The translations under genes were made by a program, and so were the position numbers. A stretch of 64,000 nt of DNA, taken from assembly GCF_963921235.1 (NCBI RefSeq), contig NC_086097.1, positions 159,838,001 to 159,902,000 on the forward strand, written 5' to 3'. The stretch's first letter is position 1; each line of letters starts with the position of its first letter. Of the stretch, positions 4,787 through 58,650 are shown in pieces. Under the pieces are notes generated by a model, which had not been told where the DNA came from, searched no databases, and was given only the letters and a program-made list of their open reading frames with translations. This stretch comes from Mobula hypostoma. Lineage: Eukaryota.

Positions 4787-5271
4787 CGAGGGGTGATTGA
4801 TAAGTCTGTGGCCTAAGGTAGAAGGAGTCAATTTTAGAAAACCTAGCACATTTATTTTTGCCACATTTACACACTTAGTCCAGCGGTCATGGAGCATACG
4901 GATCCCTTCTTTGTAGAACTTGGCATGTTGGACCTCCAGAAAGTGGTCCACAGCAGGAGTGATTGGTAAGTCCGTGGCCTAAGGTAGAAGGAGATGAGGA
5001 GAAACTTCAAACTTTCTGTATTTTCACTCAAAGAGTTGAACTGCACTTGCATGTAACAAGAGCTGTATAACTCATCTCCTTCTACCTTAGGCCATGAACT
5101 TATCAATCACCCCTGCTGTGGACCACTTCTACACAGAAGGGATCCGTATGCTCCACGACCGCTGGACTAAGTGTGTACATGTAGGAGGGGACTATGTTGA
5201 AAAATAAATGTGCTAGGTTTTCTAAAATTGACTATTTCTACTTAGGCCATGAACTTATCAATCACCCCTTG
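4787..5271. mobile_element. Mariner-derived foldback MITE with four TIR copies
   Basis: Outer TIRs CGAGGGGTGATTGATAAGT / ACTTATCAATCACCCCTTG followed by TA; inner TIR pair at ~4955-4998 and ~5071-5114; both arms carry the mariner transposase C-terminus (FYKEGIRMLHDRWTKCV; GGDYVEK* on the right arm). Confidence 0.85.
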
Positions 5272-25044: not shown

Positions 25045-27310
25045 AGACACCAGAGACAGCAGATGCTGGAATCTGGAGCAACACACAATCTGTTAGAAGA
25101 ACTTAATGTGTTGAGCAGCACCAATGGGAGCAAATAAACTGTCAACATTTCGGGCTGAAACCGTGCATGACGATTAAAAGGACAGGGCAATATTGTGGGC
25201 CGAAGGGCCTGTACAGTGCTGTAATGTTCTTTGTTCTCTGCTTCACATTCTATATTCTACATACCACCTTCTATGACTGAGAGTAGAGGGGTGAAATGGA
25301 CAGCATGGAAAGGAGAAGGAGAGTGGCAAATAAAGAAGGCTGAGGCAATTAATGAAGGTGGCAGTCAGATAGTGCCAGTAGGAGAGGTGAGCAGAGGTGG
25401 ATCTGGTGGATCTGGAGGACTGTGGCAAGTGAATACTATATCGTAGCAGAAAAAGAGAGAAAGGAAGAAGGGAAAAACAGACGGAGCAGGTTTGGTAAGT
25501 TGGTTGAGAAGACAGGTGACAATTGATAGATGGAGATAAACAGGAAGATCGATACTGGAATCTGGTATGTGAGAGAGGTGAGAATGGGGATCATTAGAGG
25601 AGATGGGAGAGGTGAACAGCAAATGGAACCAGATAGCTGGTGAGAGTGGAAGGGAAGGGGAAAAGGTGGATGGAGGCCCAATTTGAAGAAGGAGTGGCAA
25701 TGGGCAGTGGGACTGGGGATAAAAGCGGAAGGGCTGGAGGTTCAGAAGTTGGGAGGGGGGGTATAAAGGGAAAATTAAAAAAGAAAAATGAAAAAATAAA
25801 ATTGATAAACACAACATTCATGCTTTTTTATTGTAGACTACAAGTGGCTCCCGTTTTCCAAATGTTCGCTTTAGGACACCTCGCTGTTACGAAAGACCTA
25901 CATTAGTTACTTGTTTTCGCTAATAGAAGGTGTTTTCGCTATTACTTAAAAAGGCAGCGCAAGCCCGAACAGCCAAGCTCCTCCCCTGGAACTGCATTCT
26001 AGCTGGCATTGCTTAGACACGTGCTTTATCTCGATTTATTTTGTGCATCTGTTAGCAAGATGAGTTCTAAGGTATCGAAAAAACCTAAAAGAGCTCGTAA
26101 AGGTATTACACTTAGCATAAAACTAGACATAATTAAGCATTTGGATCGTGGTGAATGAAGTAAGGACATTGTCCCCTCGTTGAACATGCCTGCGTCCACC
26201 ATTCACACTATTAATACACATAGAGAAAGAATTTTGAAAGCTGCCGATGTTACTGTTAGTTCTGCTCGTAGCAAAGTGGTCTCTCTTAGTCGGCATCCAA
26301 TAATGGATAAAATGGAAAGTCTATTGCTTGAGTAGATTGATGGGTGTACAAAGCGCGGTGTTCCGTTAAGTTTTCTTATACTTAAAGAGAAATCAGTCAT
26401 GCTTTTTAATAAGCTGAAACAGAAAGCACTGGACGATGGTGATGAAAGTGTTGCAAAAGTGGAATTTCAAGGTAGTCATGGGTGGTTTGATCAGTTTCTG
26501 AGGCGAGGGCAGCTTCATAGTTTAAGCAGTGGTTCCCAACGTCCGGGCCGCGGACCGATACATTGCTGCAAAGAATGCAGGGGTGCAGCGGTAGTTGGAA
26601 CGCACCCAGCACATCCTGAAGAAAAAAGACAAAATGAACAAGCTAATTAATTGGGTGCTGCCCAGCACGTAAATGTCAGCCCAGATCAGAAGTGATTGCT
26701 GATTGCGTCAGGTGGTTATTCGTATGAGCAAGTGTTTAACTGTGATGAAACTGCAATTTATTGGAGTCTTCCCAATTCCGGTAAGTGAAACTACACTGTA
26801 CATACATTATTTCTACTTTATATAGACTGTGTATTTTATGTGTTTTTTGGTATGATTTGGCAGCTTCATAGCTTAAAGGTGAGAGAGTGTTTCTGCCAAG
26901 AACGCTTCCGTGAGATTTTCACTGCACTAGACAGTGCTGCAGTAAAGTATTTCTACTTTATATAGGTTGTGTATTTATCATATCATTCCTGTTTTTACTA
27001 TCTGTTACTGTTTTAGGTTTTATGTGTTATTTGGCATGATTTTGTAGGTTATTTTTTGGGTCTGGGAACTCTCAAAATTTTTTCCCATATTAATAAACGG
27101 TAATTGCTTATTCACTTTACGACATTCTGGCTTACGAACTGTTTCAAAGGAACGCTCTACCTTCGGATAGCGGGGGGAAACCTGTACCCAGATAAAATGT
27201 AAGGTATTGCTGCAGCTGCTTGCATTGAGTTTCATCCTGTCAGTAGAGAAGGCCAAGGATTTATAGGTTCGGTGTGGGAATGGGGAGGGAAGTTGAAATG
27301 GTCTGCACAC
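25045..27310 (-). mobile_element. Degenerate Penelope-like element split by a Tigger insertion
   Basis: pLTR at 25045-25180, purine-rich tract, GIY-YIG tail ending ..TGTAGACTA at 25840 and resuming CCCAGA.. at 27187. Confidence 0.65.
25841..27184 (+). mobile_element. Tigger/pogo DNA transposon, internally deleted
   Basis: TA-flanked imperfect TIRs CAAGTGGCTCCCG / CGGGGGGAAACCTG; from ATG 26060 a CENP-B-type HTH (MSSKVSKKPKRARKGITLSIKLDII...EFQGSHGWFDQF) with stops; QVFNCDET fragment near 26730. Confidence 0.9.
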
Positions 27311-48132: not shown

Positions 48133-48580
48133 AACAGTTTCTAACTAGTGTCACACAGGTGCACCTGCATGGCCATTAGATACTACACCATGCTTGAAGC
48201 AGACAGTTTTTAAATATCATCAGATGCATGTATTTGCGTTCAACAATCAGTGATTTTTCTCACTGGTAATTGACGAGAAATAGGCAGTAAGACAATTCAG
48301 AACTGTTTTGCTCAAGCATTCAGGCTTGGAGATGCCAGAAAGAGCAGGGAATGTAAATGAAACTATTTCACTACTTCCACAGGTTAGGAATTTGAAGGTA
48401 TCGATAATCATCTTCAATGTTACAATGAAAACGAAGATTTGGAAGTTGTGATCATTGAAAGCATTGTATGAAACCAGTCCACTGTCCACACTGGATGTCT
48501 GTGCTGATTTGGTTCATTTACAATCAATCAAAAGAACACAGCAGCATGTTCTGCATGAATTTTTCCGTCGATAACTATTA
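48133..48580 (+). mobile_element. Tigger-family non-autonomous element, left part
   Basis: Degenerate pogo/Tigger C-terminal motif (REIGSKTIQNCFAQ...FEGIDNHLQCYNENEDLE); ends ..CCGTCGATAACTATTA. Confidence 0.7.
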
Positions 48581-49857
48581 AATTCAAGGTAGCAAGAGCC
48601 AGAGAAGTGCTACAGTATAGGGACTCAAGTGACCTGAAGGAGGCTGGAGCAGGGATCCAAGTAAGTACTGGCAGGAAGTGGAGGGCAGAGGAAGCTGTTC
48701 AGGAGGCAGAGGCAAGGCTGCGTCACAGGAGGCTGGTGGGAGTGGACACACAAGGCCAAGCTGGGCTAGGATCCTCTCCAACTCCCCAAATGGACACCAG
48801 AGGGAAGGAAAGGCATCGTCTAGTTCAGGAGGAGGTGAGAGCAGTAGTGGAGGAGACGAGAGCCTGCAAGGCGGTGGGAATGAAGCAACAGGGAGCTTGG
48901 ACAAAATGGGAGAATGCAGTTGAGAGGAAAGTGACCTGGACTGATCTTTGGAAAGCCGAACCACACCGCATCCAATTTCTCATCCAGGCAGTGTACAATG
49001 TGCTTCCAAGCCCATCAAACCTGCACACATGGGGCAAGGCAGAGTCATCTGCGTGCCCACTGTGCTCCAAGCAAGGAACCCTGGAGCACATCCTCAGCGG
49101 CTGTGCAAGGGCACTTGGTAAGGGACGGTACAGGTGGAAGCATGAACAGGTCCTGAAGACCATCGCTGAAGCCGTCAGTGCAGGAGTCGAGTGGGCAAAG
49201 CGGTCCCGACCCTCCAAGCAGACCATTGCCTTTGTCAGAGCTGGGGAGCAGCCAACACCTGCCAAGAGAACATCTGCTGGCATTCTGACCTCTTCGAGGG
49301 ACTGGCAGCTGTTGGTGGACCTCGAAGGGCAGCTGAAGTTCCCCAACCATATCGCAGCCACCACCCTGCGACCAGACATTGTCCTAGTGTCTGAGTCTAC
49401 TAAGCAAGCGGTGCTGCTGGAGCTGACAGTCCCATGGGAAGATAGCTTGGAGGAGGCCTTTGAAAGGAAGCTCTCCAAGTACGCAGGACTGGTCAGCAAC
49501 TGTCCGCAGGCTGGATGGAGAGCGAGGTGTCTCCCAGTGGAGGTTGGTTGTAGGGGATTCATAGCCCGTTCTTTAGTTAGGGCCTTCAACATTTTGGGAA
49601 TCGAGGGAGAGAGGAAGAGGAGAGCCATCCGCAGTACCACTGATGCGGCAGAGAGGGCCTCAAGATGGCTGTGGCTCAAAAGAGGGGAGCCATGGAGCCA
49701 TAAGCAGCTAGCCATCTGGACACAAGCTGGGGTCTGATCAGCCCTGGCTGGGTCACCTGGAGGAGGTTGTATGATGTTGAAAGACCCGAAACACCCGATA
49801 ATTCCAGGAACATCACTGAAGATGTGTCCAGAAGCATCAACAGATGTATGTACACAG
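48581..49857 (+). mobile_element. HERO-like RLE non-LTR retrotransposon, 5'-truncated copy A
   Basis: Uninterrupted ORF with CCHC knuckle CPLCSKQGTLEHILSGC and RLE motif RPDIVL..ELTVPWE..ERKLSKY, PVEVGCRGF; 3' UTR ending AGATGTATGTACACAG. Confidence 0.9.
48583..49737 (+). CDS. C-terminal part of the HERO-like ORF (zinc knuckle + PD-(D/E)xK endonuclease), no start codon
   Basis: Open from FKVARAREVLQYRDSSD to the stop at 49737, without internal stops or frameshifts. Confidence 0.75.
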   Translation, partial: FKVARAREVLQYRDSSDLKEAGAGIQVSTGRKWRAEEAVQEAEARLRHRRLVGVDTQGQAGLGSSPTPQMDTRGKERHRLVQEEVRAVVEETRACKAVGMKQQGAWTKWENAVERKVTWTDLWKAEPHRIQFLIQAVYNVLPSPSNLHTWGKAESSACPLCSKQGTLEHILSGCARALGKGRYRWKHEQVLKTIAEAVSAGVEWAKRSRPSKQTIAFVRAGEQPTPAKRTSAGILTSSRDWQLLVDLEGQLKFPNHIAATTLRPDIVLVSESTKQAVLLELTVPWEDSLEEAFERKLSKYAGLVSNCPQAGWRARCLPVEVGCRGFIARSLVRAFNILGIEGERKRRAIRSTTDAAERASRWLWLKRGEPWSHKQLAIWTQAGV

Positions 49858-50082
49858 CTATATTTTTACATCTGTTTCTGAACATTGGCTTCAGTAAAGA
49901 TTTGGTATGAGCGTTGTACCAAACTAGTAAATATTTTGATTATGCAAATTAATTTGTAATGTTACAACTGAACATGAGAAAATATTCAAATTAATAAAAG
50001 AACTGTAGTCAAATAAGACACTGGGATATTGGAAGCATCGAATAAGGATAAAAAATAAAATCATGACTACACTATTAATGTT

Positions 50083-50260
50083 AGGGGCATCAAAGCTCGG
50101 AGTTCAATTTTAGTGTCATCTGTAAGGAGTTCATATGTTCTCCCTGTGAACCGTGTTGTTTGCCTCCATGTGCTCTGTTTTCTCCCACAGTCCAAAGACG
50201 TGCTGATTAGCAGGTCAATTGTTCATTGTAAATTGTACTGTGATTAGGCTAATATTAAAT
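50083..50260 (+). mobile_element. V-SINE fragment within the captured segment
   Basis: GTAAGGAGTTCATATGTTCTCCC...CTCCCACAGTCCAAAGACGT...AATTGTTCATTGTAAATTG. Confidence 0.7.
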
Positions 50261-50785
50261 AGATAGATAGATAGATACTTTATTGATCCCAAAGGAAATT
50301 ACAGTGACACAGTAGCATTACAAGTGCACAGGTATAAATATTAGAAAAGAAGTAGAAAGAATAAAAAATAACTTACCTCAAACAGTCTAACAAGCAGGGG
50401 GTCATCACTTCACCGGCTATAGTTTGATTCACTATAGAGCCTAATGGCCGAGGGTAAGAATGACCTCATATACTGCTCTCTGAAACAGCACAGTCTATTA
50501 CTAGAAGTGCTCCTCTGTTCAGTCAAGGTGGCATGCAGAGGGTGAGAAATATTGTCCAGAACTGCCAGGATTTTCCGTAGGGTCTTTTGTTCTACCACAG
50601 CCTCCAGTATGTCCAGTTTGACTCTGATAACAGAGTCAGCCCTTCGAATCAGTTAATTGAGCCTGTTGCAATCACCCGTGTTGATGCCATTGCTCCAGCA
50701 CACCAATGCATAGAAGACTGTACTGGTGACAACAGACTGGTAGAACATGTGAAGGAGAGGCCTGCATACTCCAAAGAACCTCAGT
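50260..50785 (-). mobile_element. Rex1/Babar LINE 3' end within the captured segment
   Basis: Minus ORF LAVLDNISHPLHATL..QRST..SFLPSAIRLY; (CTAT)n tail. Confidence 0.8.
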
Positions 50786-51697
50786 CAAGTCAAGTCGAGT
50801 CAAGTCACTTTTTATTGTCATTTCACCATAACTGCTGGTACAGAACATAGTAAAAATGAGACAACTTTTTCCAGGACCATGGTGCTACATGAAACAATAC
50901 AATATGTGTGTTGCTTGAATTTCCAGCATCTGCAGAATTCCTCGTGTTTGTTGTTTCAGTTTTTGTTGATTTGACTGTCAGTACTTGCACATCATAGGAT
51001 TTTTCTCATGTTTTTCTAATGCCTTCACTGTATTTTAAGACTGGTAGAATTTGTTTTTATTCAATATCTTCTTACATGGAGATGAATTCTGAATTTTAAA
51101 GGTAAAATAAGGGATAATTCATTGTCAATATATCAAATGTTTCTTGCATTCAATAATGTTTATAATCTCTCTTAATTCAACAATGAAATAGCTGAAGTTA
51201 TTGCAATCTCACTAAAAATAATTAAATTGCATCAACATCCTTGTACGCTGCAATTTTCTCTGACAAACTTTGTATTAATTTTTATCACCTGAAACTTTTT
51301 GTGAAATCACATCTTTTTGTAATACCTTCTCATCCGAAACTTCTACCAATCCCCCCCATTATGCTCATTTTGTGTTATCTATTGGCAAATGATCTTTATC
51401 TTCAGCTTGAAATAATATTCAAGCTTAGTGGCAGTATAGGGAGTGTTTTTCAACTATTTTTCTCCTCACTAATTTTGGCAATAAACACTATTTATAAAGC
51501 GTGGATTAGATTTCACCAAGGAGTTTTATAAAGAATGAAATGATTGATAAAGAATATTATATAGAGTGAACCATAGAACTTTTAGACTGTAACTTTTGTG
51601 CTTTTTTTTGGTAGTTGAAGCAAGAATAGGCCAGTCAATTACCTGACAATGTTATGCTGTTCTGTAAGAATTCATTGCTTTTGTTTTTTTAAAACAG

Positions 51698-51760
51698 GAG
51701 ATTCTACAGAGAAATGCGGGGAAATGCCTTGGAAAAGAAATCCAATTATGAATTACTGGA
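51698..51760 (+). CDS. PTK2: Focal adhesion kinase internal exon (FERM F2 lobe, about human residues 177-198), isolated
   Basis: Acceptor TTGCTTTTGTTTTTTTAAAACAG, donor GTGAGT; 63 nt, phase 2-2; encodes RFYREMRGNALEKKSNYELL(E) versus recalled human FAK RSYWEMRGNALEKKSNYEVLE and PYK2 RFFKDMPHNALDKKSNFELLE. Confidence 0.92.
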
Positions 51761-51828
51761 GTGAGTAGTTTATTGTTGTATTTCAGTTTTATTTATTTGA
51801 CTGTGTGAGCAATTGATTTGCACATATC

Positions 51829-52392
51829 TCAAGGGACTGGCAGCTGTTGGTGGACCTGGAAGGGCAGCTGAAGTTCCCCAACCATATCGCAGCCACCACC
51901 CTGTGACCAGACATTGTCCTAGTGTCTGAGTCTACTAAGCAAGTGGTGCTGCTGGAGCTGACAGTCCCATGGGAAGTTAGCTTGGAGGAGGCCTTTGAAA
52001 GGAAACTCTCCAAGTACGCAGGACTGGTCAGCAACTGTCAGCAGGCTGGATGGAGAGCGGGGTGTCTCCCAGTGGAGGTTGGTTGTAGGGGATTCATAGC
52101 CCATTCTTTAGTTAGAGCCTTCAGCATTTTGGGCATCGACGGAGAGAGGAAGAGGAGAGCCATCCGCAGTACCACCGATGCGGCAGAGAGGGCCTCAAGA
52201 GGGCTGTGGCTCAAAAGAGGGGAGCCATGGAGTCATAAGTAGCTAGCCATCTGGATACAAGCTGGGGTCTGATCAGCCCCGGCTGGGTCACCTGGAGGAG
52301 GTTGTAAGATGTTGAAAGACCCGAAACAGCCAATGATTCCAGGAACATCACTGAAGATGTGTCCAGAAGCATCAATAGATGTATGTACACAG
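51829..52392 (+). mobile_element. HERO-like retroelement copy B (3'-terminal 564 bp)
   Basis: Colinear without indels with 49294-49857 (offset 2535); about 24 substitutions by manual count (~96% identity). Confidence 0.92.
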
Positions 52393-52607
52393 GAACTAAT
52401 ACACAGTTTTATAGGATTGCATTGGTAGTGATCAAATTTGCTCTGTATTCCATTTAAATACATAAATTGCTGCTCACTTAAAAAGGAGTCTGTCTTTATT
52501 TCATACCTGTTTAACTATTTCCATGAAATTCCAGCCCATTGGGGCAGCCGCTTAATTTGGACTACATGTACCGATACCCATGTATCACAATTATCTGAAA
52601 TCCACTG
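52392..52607 (+). mobile_element. Tigger-family element, right part with TIR
   Basis: GGAACTAATACACAGTTTT...GGGGCAGCCGCTTAATT...GAAATCCACTG followed by TA. Confidence 0.7.
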
Positions 52608-54704
52608 TACTTAAAAATCTCTCATTTGTATCCTTTAATCTAACCCTTGCATACTCAATTATTTCATCTTCACAGCATCTCTGGCACAATGATGTACAAA
52701 GGCTCATGACCACCTGAGTGAATTGTTTTCTCCTCTTCTCTGTCTCAAATGGCAACTGTTTATCTGAAACTATTCTTCCTCCTTGATAATCTCACTGATA
52801 TTATCTCTTGTTAATCCACTTATAATTGCATGTTTCAATAAAATCACCACTTATTCTGTATTCCGGTAAGCAAAGGTCCAACCTGCTTAATCTTCCTGTA
52901 AATATTAACTCCTTCAATAACTAATGTTTATTTCACTTTTCTCCTCCATTTGTATGAAGGATATTGCTCTCACATTTCATCTTTTCCCTTTATGTATTTT
53001 ATCTTTTTCATTATTTTTTGCTGACTTCAAAAAAATTCCCAGTTCACTGGTTTACCACTCATCTTCACAATTTTGCCTTCTCTTTCAATTTTATACCATC
53101 CTTAGCTATTTTTGTTCGTTATGGATAGTTTATCCTTCCTTCCTGTGGTCCCCACCTTTGGCACTAAAATATACTTCTCATAAGATTTATGAAAATTCTC
53201 CTGAAATTCCTGCTACATGTCTATCATATCTCTTACTCTCTAATCTATTTCCCAGTAGACTTTATTCACCTCATTCCATTGTATGCTTTCTATAATGTAT
53301 AGGGCAGTTGTTTCGGATTCATTTCTCATCTTCAATTTGAATTTGAAATTCTACCATACTTTTTCATTTCGTTTACTGTGAGATCATTAATTAATTCTGT
53401 TTTATTATATAATCCCTGATCTAAAATGATGTGCTGCCTGGTTGGTTTCCAAAATATTGCTCCAAAAGACCATCCCCAAGGACATCCCTGATAATTTGAT
53501 TTGCCCATTTATACAACAATTAAAATAGCCCATGATTATTGAATCACTTTTATGGGCTCTTATTAAACCTGTCCAACAGTATAACTACTACTTTCATGAG
53601 TGATTCTTACTCTTAGTATTCCTTATTTCCAACCAGACTGAAATCCAAGAAATATTCTTTCTGGCACTTCCAAGAAGGAGTGTGTTATATTTTATTAGAC
53701 AAAAATTCTGAAAAGAAGAGTTATTTTTTTAAGGGTTGTTGGCTACGGTAGGAAAATGGATGCAGACGTGCACCTGAGCACATAACAAATCTGCTGTAAA
53801 TGCACAGTTTCCATGGTTCCCAAAGGGTTGGGTGGTCCTTTATGGAACAGAAGGAGATGTAGTAACCAGGATGCAGCAGGCATTAGATCCCATGGGTATA
53901 GGTGCCATGTCAAGCATTATTTGTCCTTCAAACACAATGAAAGTCGCTAATCATGAGGATTGCCTCATGAAAAGTCTGCTAGACTGGACACCTCATTGTT
54001 AAATATGAACATAATCTAACTCAAAGCATGTTGGAAACAGTAAGCCAGATAGCATCTTTGAAGGTGGTAATATTCAGGAACGCGACCTCTCCTCTATGGT
54101 CTGAGCTACAAAATTTCATTACATGTATCAACTGCTTACATGAATGAATTATAAATGTTATATCTTTATGTATCAGACCATTTAAACTTACTGAAATATT
54201 AAAATAAGGGATGTGGACTAATGATACTGAGATAAGCAAAAAAATGTTAGAAATACACTGCATATCAGGCAGCTGTTGTGTGAAATAAATAGAGTTAATT
54301 AACTTTCATGGTTTATTTGAGATATATCCGAGTTATGACTGGAATAGACAGTCTGAGCAGGACTGACCAATTTCATTTAAGAACTGAGAGAAATAGATTT
54401 AACTTACCTGTGATTGGTAGAAGAAATAAAGGAAATTCAAGCAGAAAATAGTTTCCACCAAAAGTGTAGTACATCATTGTCTGAAATGATGGTGGAATTA
54501 AAAACTTTCATCTCATTCGCAAAGTCATTTCAACAACTAGAACTTACAAATGAGAACTGGAAAGTAGGATTATAGAGTGAACAGCTGATTGACCTGCTTT
54601 CTATACTGTAAATTTATTGATTTTCTGAATATTAAGATTAGTCCTTGGCAATTTAAGAGTGAAAACTAAAAGCGAATTTCATATATGGGGCTATGAAAAT
54701 ATGG

Positions 54705-57164: not shown

Positions 57165-58650
57165 ATGTTCAGTTGTCAAATGGTATCACAACAACAACCT
57201 TGCACTCAGCATCAGTAAGATCAAGGAATTGATTGTGGAATTTATGAAGGAGAAGTCAAGGGAACACACACCAGTCCTCATGGAGGGATGTGCGGTGAAA
57301 AAGGTGAGCACTTTCAAGTTCTTGTGTGTCAACATCTCTGTAGATCAATTCTGGGCCCAACATACTGATGTAGTTACAAAGAAGGCATTACAGCACCAAT
57401 ATTTCATCAGGAGTTTGAGGAGAATTGGTATATCTCCAAAAACATGCACAAATTTCTGCAGGCAGACAGGTACATTCTAACTGGTTGTTTTACCACCTGG
57501 TATGGAGGGGTCACTTCACAGGATTACTAAAAGCTGCAGAAAGTTGTAAACTCAGCCAGGTACCTTTTGGGCAATAGCTTCCCCAGCACTGAGGACATCT
57601 TCAAAAGACAATACCTCTAAAACAGCGGTCCCCAACCACCGGGCCGCAAAGCATGTGCTACCGGGCCGTGAGGAAACGATATGAGTCAGCTGCACCTTTC
57701 CTCTTTCCCTGTCACGCACTGTTGAACTTTAACGTAAGGTTGCCAACTGTCCCATATTTGCCAGGACATCCCGTATATTGGGCTAAATTGGTTTATCCCA
57801 TACAGGACCGCCCTGGTCCCGTATTTCCCCCGCTAAGGTAGAGCGTTGCTATGAAACCTTTCGTGCCGAAATGGCGTAAAGCGAAGAAGCAATTACCATT
57901 AATTTATATAGGAAAAATTTTTGAGCATTGCCAGACCCAAAAAATAACCTACCAAATCATACCAAATAACACATAAAACCTAAAATAACACTAACATATA
58001 GTAAAAGCAGGAATGATATGATAAATACACAGCCTATATAAAGTAGAAATAATGTATGTACAGTATAGTCGGGAAGATTAAGCCGAAACTGATGTGGGAA
58101 AAAAAAATCGGCACGTACACGCAGGCGCACACCCGTCACACATGCATACACAGGAGCTCATGCAAGGCTTCATGGTCATAGTAATCTTTCCTGGGGTAAA
58201 CACTGTCCTGTATTTGACTGCTACTTTTATCCCTTATTTGGGAGTGAGAAAGTTGGCAACCCTAACTGTAAAAGACATGTTGAGGTGAGTATAACCCTAC
58301 TTGAACAACAGCCCCCTGCCGTCAATCGGTCGGTCCGCAAGAATATTGTCAATATTAAACCAGTCCGTGGTGCAAAAAAGGTTGGGGACCCCTGCTCTAA
58401 AAGATGATATCCATCACCCAGGACATGCCTTCTTCTCATTGCTACCAAAAAGGAGGTGGTAGAGGAGCCTGAAGACACACACACAACTTTTCAGAAACAG
58501 CTTCTTCTCCTCTCATCAGATATCTAAATGGAAAATGAACCCAATTTAGTTTTATATATGCTTATTGTAATTTTCAGTTTTTATTATTATGTATTGCAAT
58601 GTATTGCTACCACAAAACAACAAGCTTCACAACATATGCCAGCCATATTA
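57165..58650 (+). mobile_element. Rex1/Babar-type LINE 3' part, interrupted by a hAT element
   Basis: WYHNNNLALSISKIKELIVEF..FKFLCVNIS..; same type as 23345-24465. Confidence 0.8.
57623..58394. mobile_element. Non-autonomous hAT (Charlie-like) composite element
   Basis: TIRs CAGCGGTCCCCAACC / GGTTGGGGACCCCTG; perfect 8-bp TSD CTCTAAAA (57615-57622 and 58395-58402). Confidence 0.9.

Follow-up and report, generated by a model that had tools for sequence, protein, structure and literature searches.

A PTK2 exon between two HERO retroelement copies, likely placed there by two-donor break repair

Tremblay, Jasin and Chartrand reportedly showed in 2000 that a break in a long interspersed element (LINE) is repaired from other LINE copies, and Richardson and Jasin are said to have described coupled homologous/non-homologous repair, also in 2000. 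According to its accessible text, the study of Pace et al. (2009; PMC2671141) explains repair-mediated duplications by two-template synthesis-dependent strand annealing (SDSA) and lists 20 human two-donor cases, 2 of them with whole exons duplicated; for the distant class, where the case described here falls, 41% are estimated to be true repair events. The accessible parts of two further studies add that intrachromosomal repeat partners are preferred over more similar ones elsewhere in non-allelic Ty-Ty recombination in yeast (PMC2996329), and that the multi-invasion rearrangement MIR2 yields an insertion without further breaks and needs homology 3' of both donors (PMC10499017). For retroelements, the sections available describe end-to-end template jumping by R2 (PMC3414825) and recombination of L1 cDNA intermediates with breaks, a further route for reverse transcriptase products (PMC13526784). 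Here we analyze a 64,000-nt stretch of DNA (the window; genome G000, contig C1, positions 159838001-159902000), in which a copied exon of PTK2 lies between two pieces of a HERO-like retroelement, themselves enclosed in a split DNA transposon, and we argue that host break repair guided by HERO homology is the likely origin of this arrangement.

All the parts named in a preliminary description of the locus were recovered in place, and the sandwich was confirmed as real; its components all lie on the plus strand. It opens with the left part (48133..48580) and closes with the right part (52392..52609) of a non-autonomous element that we take to be Tigger-like, a name that goes back to the preliminary description. 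Copies of this host family are ~840 nt long, with ~20-nt terminal inverted repeats (TIRs) that begin with CAG and are flanked by TA. Of the ends anticipated for the split element, the right one is present, with its TIR running to 52607 and TA at 52608-9; the left part lacks the first ~160 nt, including its TIR. Among 24 further copies of this transposon, 23 gave a right-half match, which in most of them directly abuts the left half, the family reading ..ACTATTA immediately followed by GGAACTAATACACAG..; exceptions include the divergent copies L085 and L088, with ~500 nt between the halves. The expectation that the halves would rejoin with essentially no loss or target duplication was thus borne out, as 0-1 nt are lost, one G is common to the HERO end, and no target duplication is seen. 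This last absence says little, because a crude scan of 26 truncated HERO copies found few clear target duplications. Between the halves lie HERO copy A (48581..49857; 5'-truncated, 1277 nt), a 1971-nt spacer, and HERO copy B (51829..52392; 564 nt), the latter starting 68 nt 3' of the PTK2 exon. Both copies are on the same strand, belong to one family, and are 96% alike.

The 1.97-kb spacer is made up of two pieces, each from a different donor that is still intact on the same chromosome. Window positions 50903-52392 align without gaps to C1:161973091-161974580 at 98.5% identity, and this donor is the native PTK2 gene that had been proposed as the source, with neighboring exons matching FAK1 and a same-strand FAT domain at 162.24 Mb. 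The donor locus already carries a truncated HERO copy (Y), sense to PTK2 and 68 nt after the exon; it is intact and sits between in-frame PTK2 exons. A PTK2 origin, however, holds only for the intron-exon-intron piece at 50903..51828 (from C1:161973091-161974016, plus strand, 2.08 Mb downstream), and not for 49858..50902, which duplicates the 3' flank of a second truncated HERO copy, X (C1:156764601-156765654, minus strand, 3.12 Mb upstream). This piece, inverted relative to its source, opens with X's own 10-nt target duplication, which intact donor X retains. Substitutions relative to the donors amount to 7/1045 (0.67%) in the X piece, additionally marked by a 1-nt indel and a 10-nt repeat-length indel, and to 8/926 (0.86%) in the PTK2 piece, a similar divergence that fits one event. 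The two pieces, each sense to its own HERO copy, meet bluntly at 50902..50903, with no shared bases (microhomology) and no added ones (filler). In genome copy searches, in which the best 40 candidates were scored per search, each piece had one full-length second copy. The chance that both donors fall within 3.13 Mb is 3e-6, if drawn genome-wide.

HERO is a high-copy family, with 3125 first-look candidates and the same terminal motif in nearly all of 77 copies; positions within it are counted here along copy A, from 1 to 1277. Sequence comparison indicates that copy A is much older than the cargo. It differs from the family majority at 38/1277 sites (~3%) and from X, which spans only 470-1277 of copy A, at 48/808 sites (6%), as opposed to 7/1045 in the flank copied from X. 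Given that X is only 808 nt long, the 5' 470 nt of copy A cannot derive from it. None of the 40 copies scored of 3125 candidates is >96% identical to copy A, and no source near 99% for copy A, its 3' part or the 3' part of copy B appeared among the 40 scored per search. Copy A would thus be old resident sequence to at least ~49624, its last ~230 nt carrying two rare alleles common to donor X and a neighboring copy, Z.

Copy B, in turn, is chimeric as judged from its alleles, and Y-derived only in its 5' ~310 nt. It differs from Y at 14/564 sites, above the cargo rate of 15/1971 (Fisher p 0.002, uncorrected for CpG; 3 of the 14 are CpG transitions). Y's rare alleles are present in copy B at 890, 945, and 1025, but at none of 1045, 1049, and 1163 (0/3). 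The log-likelihood ratio for copying from Y is +14.8 over 729-1030 and -10.9 over 1044-1277, the best of 88 unrelated copies scoring -2.1 over the first part of copy B. This template-switch signal rests on shared alleles, because raw mismatch counts between copy B and Y show no switch (6/316 vs 8/247, p 0.41). Donor-Y sequence would accordingly extend to ~52141-52159, to be followed by a different copy, which we read as the resident's 3' end; no match to this make-up was found elsewhere among the scored copies. The best single-resident model places the switch in copy B at 1026-1042 and that in copy A at 1046-1114, that is, near one point. Copy A is without Y's alleles at 1045 and 1049, and the only rare alleles that it has in common with X are those at 1118 and 1261; two shared alleles occur in 2/2926 background pairs. 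Z, 119 kb from X, has 1118, 1165, and 1261 in common with copy A and 1214 with copy B. The tail of copy A therefore looks X/Z-like but patchy, which could reflect template switching, patchy conversion, or later conversion among neighbors. Two other accounts were tried and rejected, one in which A and B duplicate the same copy over 1044-1277 (ratio -18.9) and one in which copy B stems wholly from Y (7-8 log units worse). As a separate observation, Z (L155, C1:156884010-156884558) shares rare alleles 964, 1118, and 1261 with X, and L121 (C1:156063945-156064751) shares 696, 704, 1032, and 1043 with X (L022), suggesting conversion among neighboring HERO copies within 4 Mb on C1.

We then turned to sequencing reads, comprising two runs of organism A (one sample, S1, possibly the assembly's own source) and two of the related organism B (one sample), the latter with 29 differences in 1035 at the flank. 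Over 50925-51856, contigs of organism A have the cargo alleles of the window without a single difference, and the X flank is present in the runs in two versions, that of the window and that of the donor. In organism B, two sites have the allele of the window and two further sites that of the donors. Pooled cargo depth in organism A was 1.59 times that of the flank (1.64 and 1.46 in the single runs), where 0.91 would be expected in the absence of a duplication, 1.31 for a heterozygous and 1.81 for a homozygous one. In organism B it was 1.01 (0.85 and 1.49 singly). Both runs of organism B yielded a contig that opens with 28 letters of the HERO 3' end and continues into the right half of the Tigger-like element, as at 52392 in the window. 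At Y, too, contigs of organism B end in HERO, as they do at X in one of the runs, so that the HERO copies at the acceptor, X, and Y seem older than the split from organism B. This HERO-Tigger junction, combined with single-copy cargo depth in organism B, places HERO first and the cargo later, an order that is supported with the caveats weighed below. The 3.8-kb block, previously proposed to be one insert, is consequently not one in time.

On these grounds, we consider it likely that the cargo arrived through host break repair in a resident HERO copy, by two-donor SDSA completed by end-joining (two-donor repair-mediated duplication). An ordinary 5'-truncated HERO copy, R, would have inserted into the Tigger-like element before the split from organism B, a step that the organism B contigs support. 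Much later, we infer, R was broken ~235-250 nt from its 3' end, near position 1030-1045. Its left end would have invaded X (3.1 Mb away, inverted), copying beyond the 3' end of X for 1045 nt of its flank, and its right end Y in the PTK2 intron (2.1 Mb away), copying back through Y's 5' part and on into 926 nt of PTK2 intron-exon-intron. The new strands would then have been released, leaving the donors intact, and joined bluntly for a net gain of 2535 nt, with the PTK2 exon as a passenger. Each donor piece is indeed joined via its own HERO copy and has the polarity needed for invasion by two ends; such a scheme predicts that a direct repeat is formed, that the pieces have the polarity seen, that the donors stay intact, and that they lie close by in cis. 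The two intact donors in cis, the blunt junction, and the chimeric copy B are direct observations, whereas the break and its position, DNA rather than RNA templates, and one event rather than two are steps that this scheme would entail.

Several points weigh against this scheme. The central joint has no microhomology, which annealing models expect. Invading copies that are 4-6% diverged must evade mismatch rejection. The last 234 nt of copy A are not a clean copy of X, with 8 differences (7 substitutions, 1 indel) and, for 1044-1277, an A-from-X ratio of -2.2; adding a third template gives a score 4-6 log units above that of the single-resident model, in which, moreover, the two switch estimates are not independent because overlap is penalized. 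As for timing, a substitution test for cargo younger than speciation was weak (11 vs 21, p 0.055), the 28 HERO letters in organism B fall short of the 31-letter bridging rule and both its runs come from one sample, run X5 of that organism alone gave a cargo depth of 1.49, and contig depth is a rough proxy rather than a copy number. Finally, among the contigs listed, none bridges the central junction and none covers the X flank in run X5.

Compared with the cases of Pace et al., as far as the accessible text describes them, the locus shares an insert inside a transposon, intact donors, two donors fused in one acceptor, and the same-chromosome bias (PMC2671141). The insert lies in a repeat, each piece is found at one other locus, and no poly(A) tail or target duplication belongs to the copied DNA. 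In the same available text, however, one donor lies <5 kb away in all 20 chimeras, proximal duplications reach at most 619 bp, and breakpoints show 2-9 nt of microhomology, filler, or small deletions; in the present case, the donors lie 3.12 and 2.08 Mb away, 1971 nt of unique-site DNA were copied, the inner joint is blunt with 0 nt of microhomology or filler, and invasion would have proceeded through hundreds of bases of retroelement homology (PMC2671141). Lacking both the 5-kb donor and the microhomology or filler, the locus is a variant rather than a plain member of that class. It resembles Ty-Ty recombination (PMC2996329) in its intrachromosomal repeat partners and MIR2 (PMC10499017) in gaining an insertion without further breaks, the joint differing from that of MIR2, as far as described in the parts available, in being non-homologous and blunt. 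In LINE-break and coupled repair, too, a broken repeat uses ectopic family templates, and copying can continue beyond the homology to be closed by end-joining; those are cell-culture reporters, whereas the case here would be a germline event, with both ends entering unique DNA of different donors. The literature covered showed no HERO-mediated case, no case with two megabase-distant donors, and no identical structure, with most subscription journals, Repbase Reports, and Table S1 of Pace et al. (possibly holding closer cases) outside that coverage.

A contribution of the HERO enzyme itself has to be judged against the properties of the family. RVT_1 was detected in the long copy L162 (E 4e-9), homologues carry PF00078, and the 392-aa frame of copy A contains a C-X2-C-X8-H-X4-C knuckle and a PD..D restriction-like endonuclease motif, defined after the available part of PMC2790886; zf-RVT in this frame (E 8e-6) was just below the cut-off, and no solved structure matched the N-terminal frame. 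The HERO protein is 57% identical to BAC82598.1 of Takifugu and 60% to a Tetraodon protein that clusters with BAC82599.1, pufferfish proteins that, from organism and accession order, would be HEROFr and HEROTn (AB097130/1), elements whose background is given in the accessible parts of PMC4640811, PMC7650587, PMC9004415, PMC3636483, and PMC2790886. A protein piece encoded at window 48559-49737 is 84% identical to teleost elements, for example of Conger and Limanda; for a cartilaginous fish as host, this would suggest horizontal transfer of HERO. Immediately upstream of full-length elements (~3.6 kb) lie 36-449 nt of their own 3' end, forming partial tandem arrays; such a piece was found upstream in 3/4 unselected full-length copies (4/5 including one picked as a pair), plus L163, the loci being L163:4173-4300, L198, L207, L208, and L214. 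Zebulon is said to form partial tandem arrays of a similar kind. Internally rearranged HERO copies were also noted, with a ~0.9-kb interruption in L199, a ~200-nt 5' inversion in L209, and a ~0.5-kb interruption near 730 in L151 (L151/L173).

These tandem pieces lend some weight to RNA-templated repair, an unlikely explanation that survives better than the other alternatives. A break or nick in R would prime the HERO reverse transcriptase on nascent PTK2 pre-mRNA via the embedded Y, followed by an end-to-end jump to a transcript of locus X and annealing of the cDNA to R's left end. Y indeed runs in the sense direction of PTK2, as does each piece relative to its own HERO copy, nascent RNA is also spatially near, and the blunt junction suits end-to-end jumping as reported for R2 in the accessible text of PMC3414825. 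Homology, however, would force the same orientation under any model, the head-to-tail pieces could equally stem from read-through of tandem sources, and both RNA ends would be arbitrary intronic points. Furthermore, 30 kb around X showed only a repeat-type match and no host exon (80/149 frames scanned), so that a transcript there is not indicated. In its wider form, in which an old copy is revisited by the HERO protein, or by host repair that employs it, and nascent host transcripts with embedded HERO are reverse transcribed there with an end-to-end jump between two of them, we hold this idea to be improbable to the same degree. If true, sense intronic HERO remnants would be handles for copying unspliced exons of neighboring genes into HERO copies of the same neighborhood.

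Of the mechanisms put forward in the preliminary description, DNA entering a resident HERO by homology came closest, except that a spacer with two donors could not come from a single PTK2 circle, which the absence of Y's own 3' flank from the spacer excludes. A chimeric circle made up of the 3' end and flank of X, the PTK2 piece, and the 5' part of Y would, on entering the resident by a single crossover, yield the same part order and account for the direct repeat. It seems distinctly improbable, as it calls for recombination between X and Y beforehand, a blunt join, and an integration event, and the crossover of the circle would have to fall within ~20 nt of the integration site, given that copy A is without Y's alleles at 1045 and 1049. 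We give still less credence to the proposal of a single retrotransposition with template jumps (HERO RNA, PTK2 pre-mRNA, X RNA, HERO RNA) that placed the whole 3.8 kb in an empty Tigger-like element. The outer junctions do resemble ordinary HERO ends, and the family forms tandem pieces as well as belonging to an enzyme class related to that of R2 and Zebulon, with 3' pieces head-to-tail before full-length copies. Chimeras of R2 and Zebulon, however, arise within a single insertion and carry the extra RNA at the 5' end, whereas here the element seems older than the cargo, which is internal. The proposal calls for four templates with two homologous switches and a blunt jump, copy A is ~3% from the family majority without a close source while the cargo is <1% from its donors, and both donors lie in cis within 3.13 Mb. 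An element and cargo of the same age with an empty site in relatives, the mark of a one-step chimera, was not what we found, the apparently single-copy cargo of organism B accompanying a HERO-Tigger junction.

The odds are slimmer again for an assembly chimera, with alternate-haplotype X and Y sequence misplaced between collapsed repeats. All joints are in or beside high-copy repeats, the central one being unbridged as noted, and S1 is possibly the source of the assembly; yet organism A's cargo depth of 1.64 and 1.46 contrasts with the 0.91 expected without duplication, both X-flank versions occur in the runs, organism B's alleles split two with the window and two with the donors, and the chimera in copy B recurs nowhere among scored copies. 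The suggested 3' transduction, with tandem HERO copies in an intron of PTK2 as its source, accounts for nothing beyond the part order and is refuted for the present assembly, where 60 kb of donor hold only one HERO piece, the first 1045 nt of the spacer come from a locus 5.2 Mb from the PTK2 donor, the 3' flank is common to no two of 77 copies, and the cargo does not correspond to the uninterrupted 3' flank of a single source. The best reading of the route is host break repair directed by homology between HERO copies, in place of the exon-capture activity of HERO envisaged earlier. HERO-cargo-HERO structures did not recur in 20 loci with 5 kb on each side (0/20; a small sample, biased to long, young copies) nor in 77 with 1.5-kb flanks (0/77; too short to catch the present case).

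The displaced exon itself (51698..51760, 63 nt) matches FAK1 best (E 5.7e-5; PTK2B 0.0086), as had been claimed. It has equal phase at both ends, is identical to the donor exon, and retains intact AG/GT splice sites. At the acceptor, 110 of 542 non-repeat frames gave no convincing Pfam match to a host gene (two weak matches were under the cut-off), and family searches for candidate neighbor genes placed nothing on C1. With no host gene detected around it, the exon copy is most likely inert, and no function is indicated for it. A second FAT-domain gene was seen at L017 and L020 (contig C22, 2.27-2.28 Mb), probably PTK2B. Elsewhere in the window, a ~420-nt near-perfect, inverted repeat resembling a miniature inverted-repeat transposable element occupies 4818-5241 (arms 93-95% complementary), and an inverted repeat pair 31 kb apart, at 26790-27131 and 57865-58069 (88-96% alike), probably represents two copies of one family.

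Taken together, the locus is most likely a natural case of a known repair accident, not a new retroelement trick, that differs from described cases in the megabase distance of its donors and the long repeat homology. As a natural record of repair guided by homology between dispersed repeats, it is unusually clear, in that the broken copy, both donors, and a probable earlier state can be read. Two-donor copying, it suggests, works over megabases in cis and between copies that are 4-6% diverged, and an intact in-frame exon with its splice sites may be moved without retrotransposition. Repeat-cargo-repeat structures of this kind resemble transductions and could be mis-assigned as such. Allele sharing among neighboring HERO copies would make the donor choice of broken repeats in the vertebrate germline testable from genome sequence.

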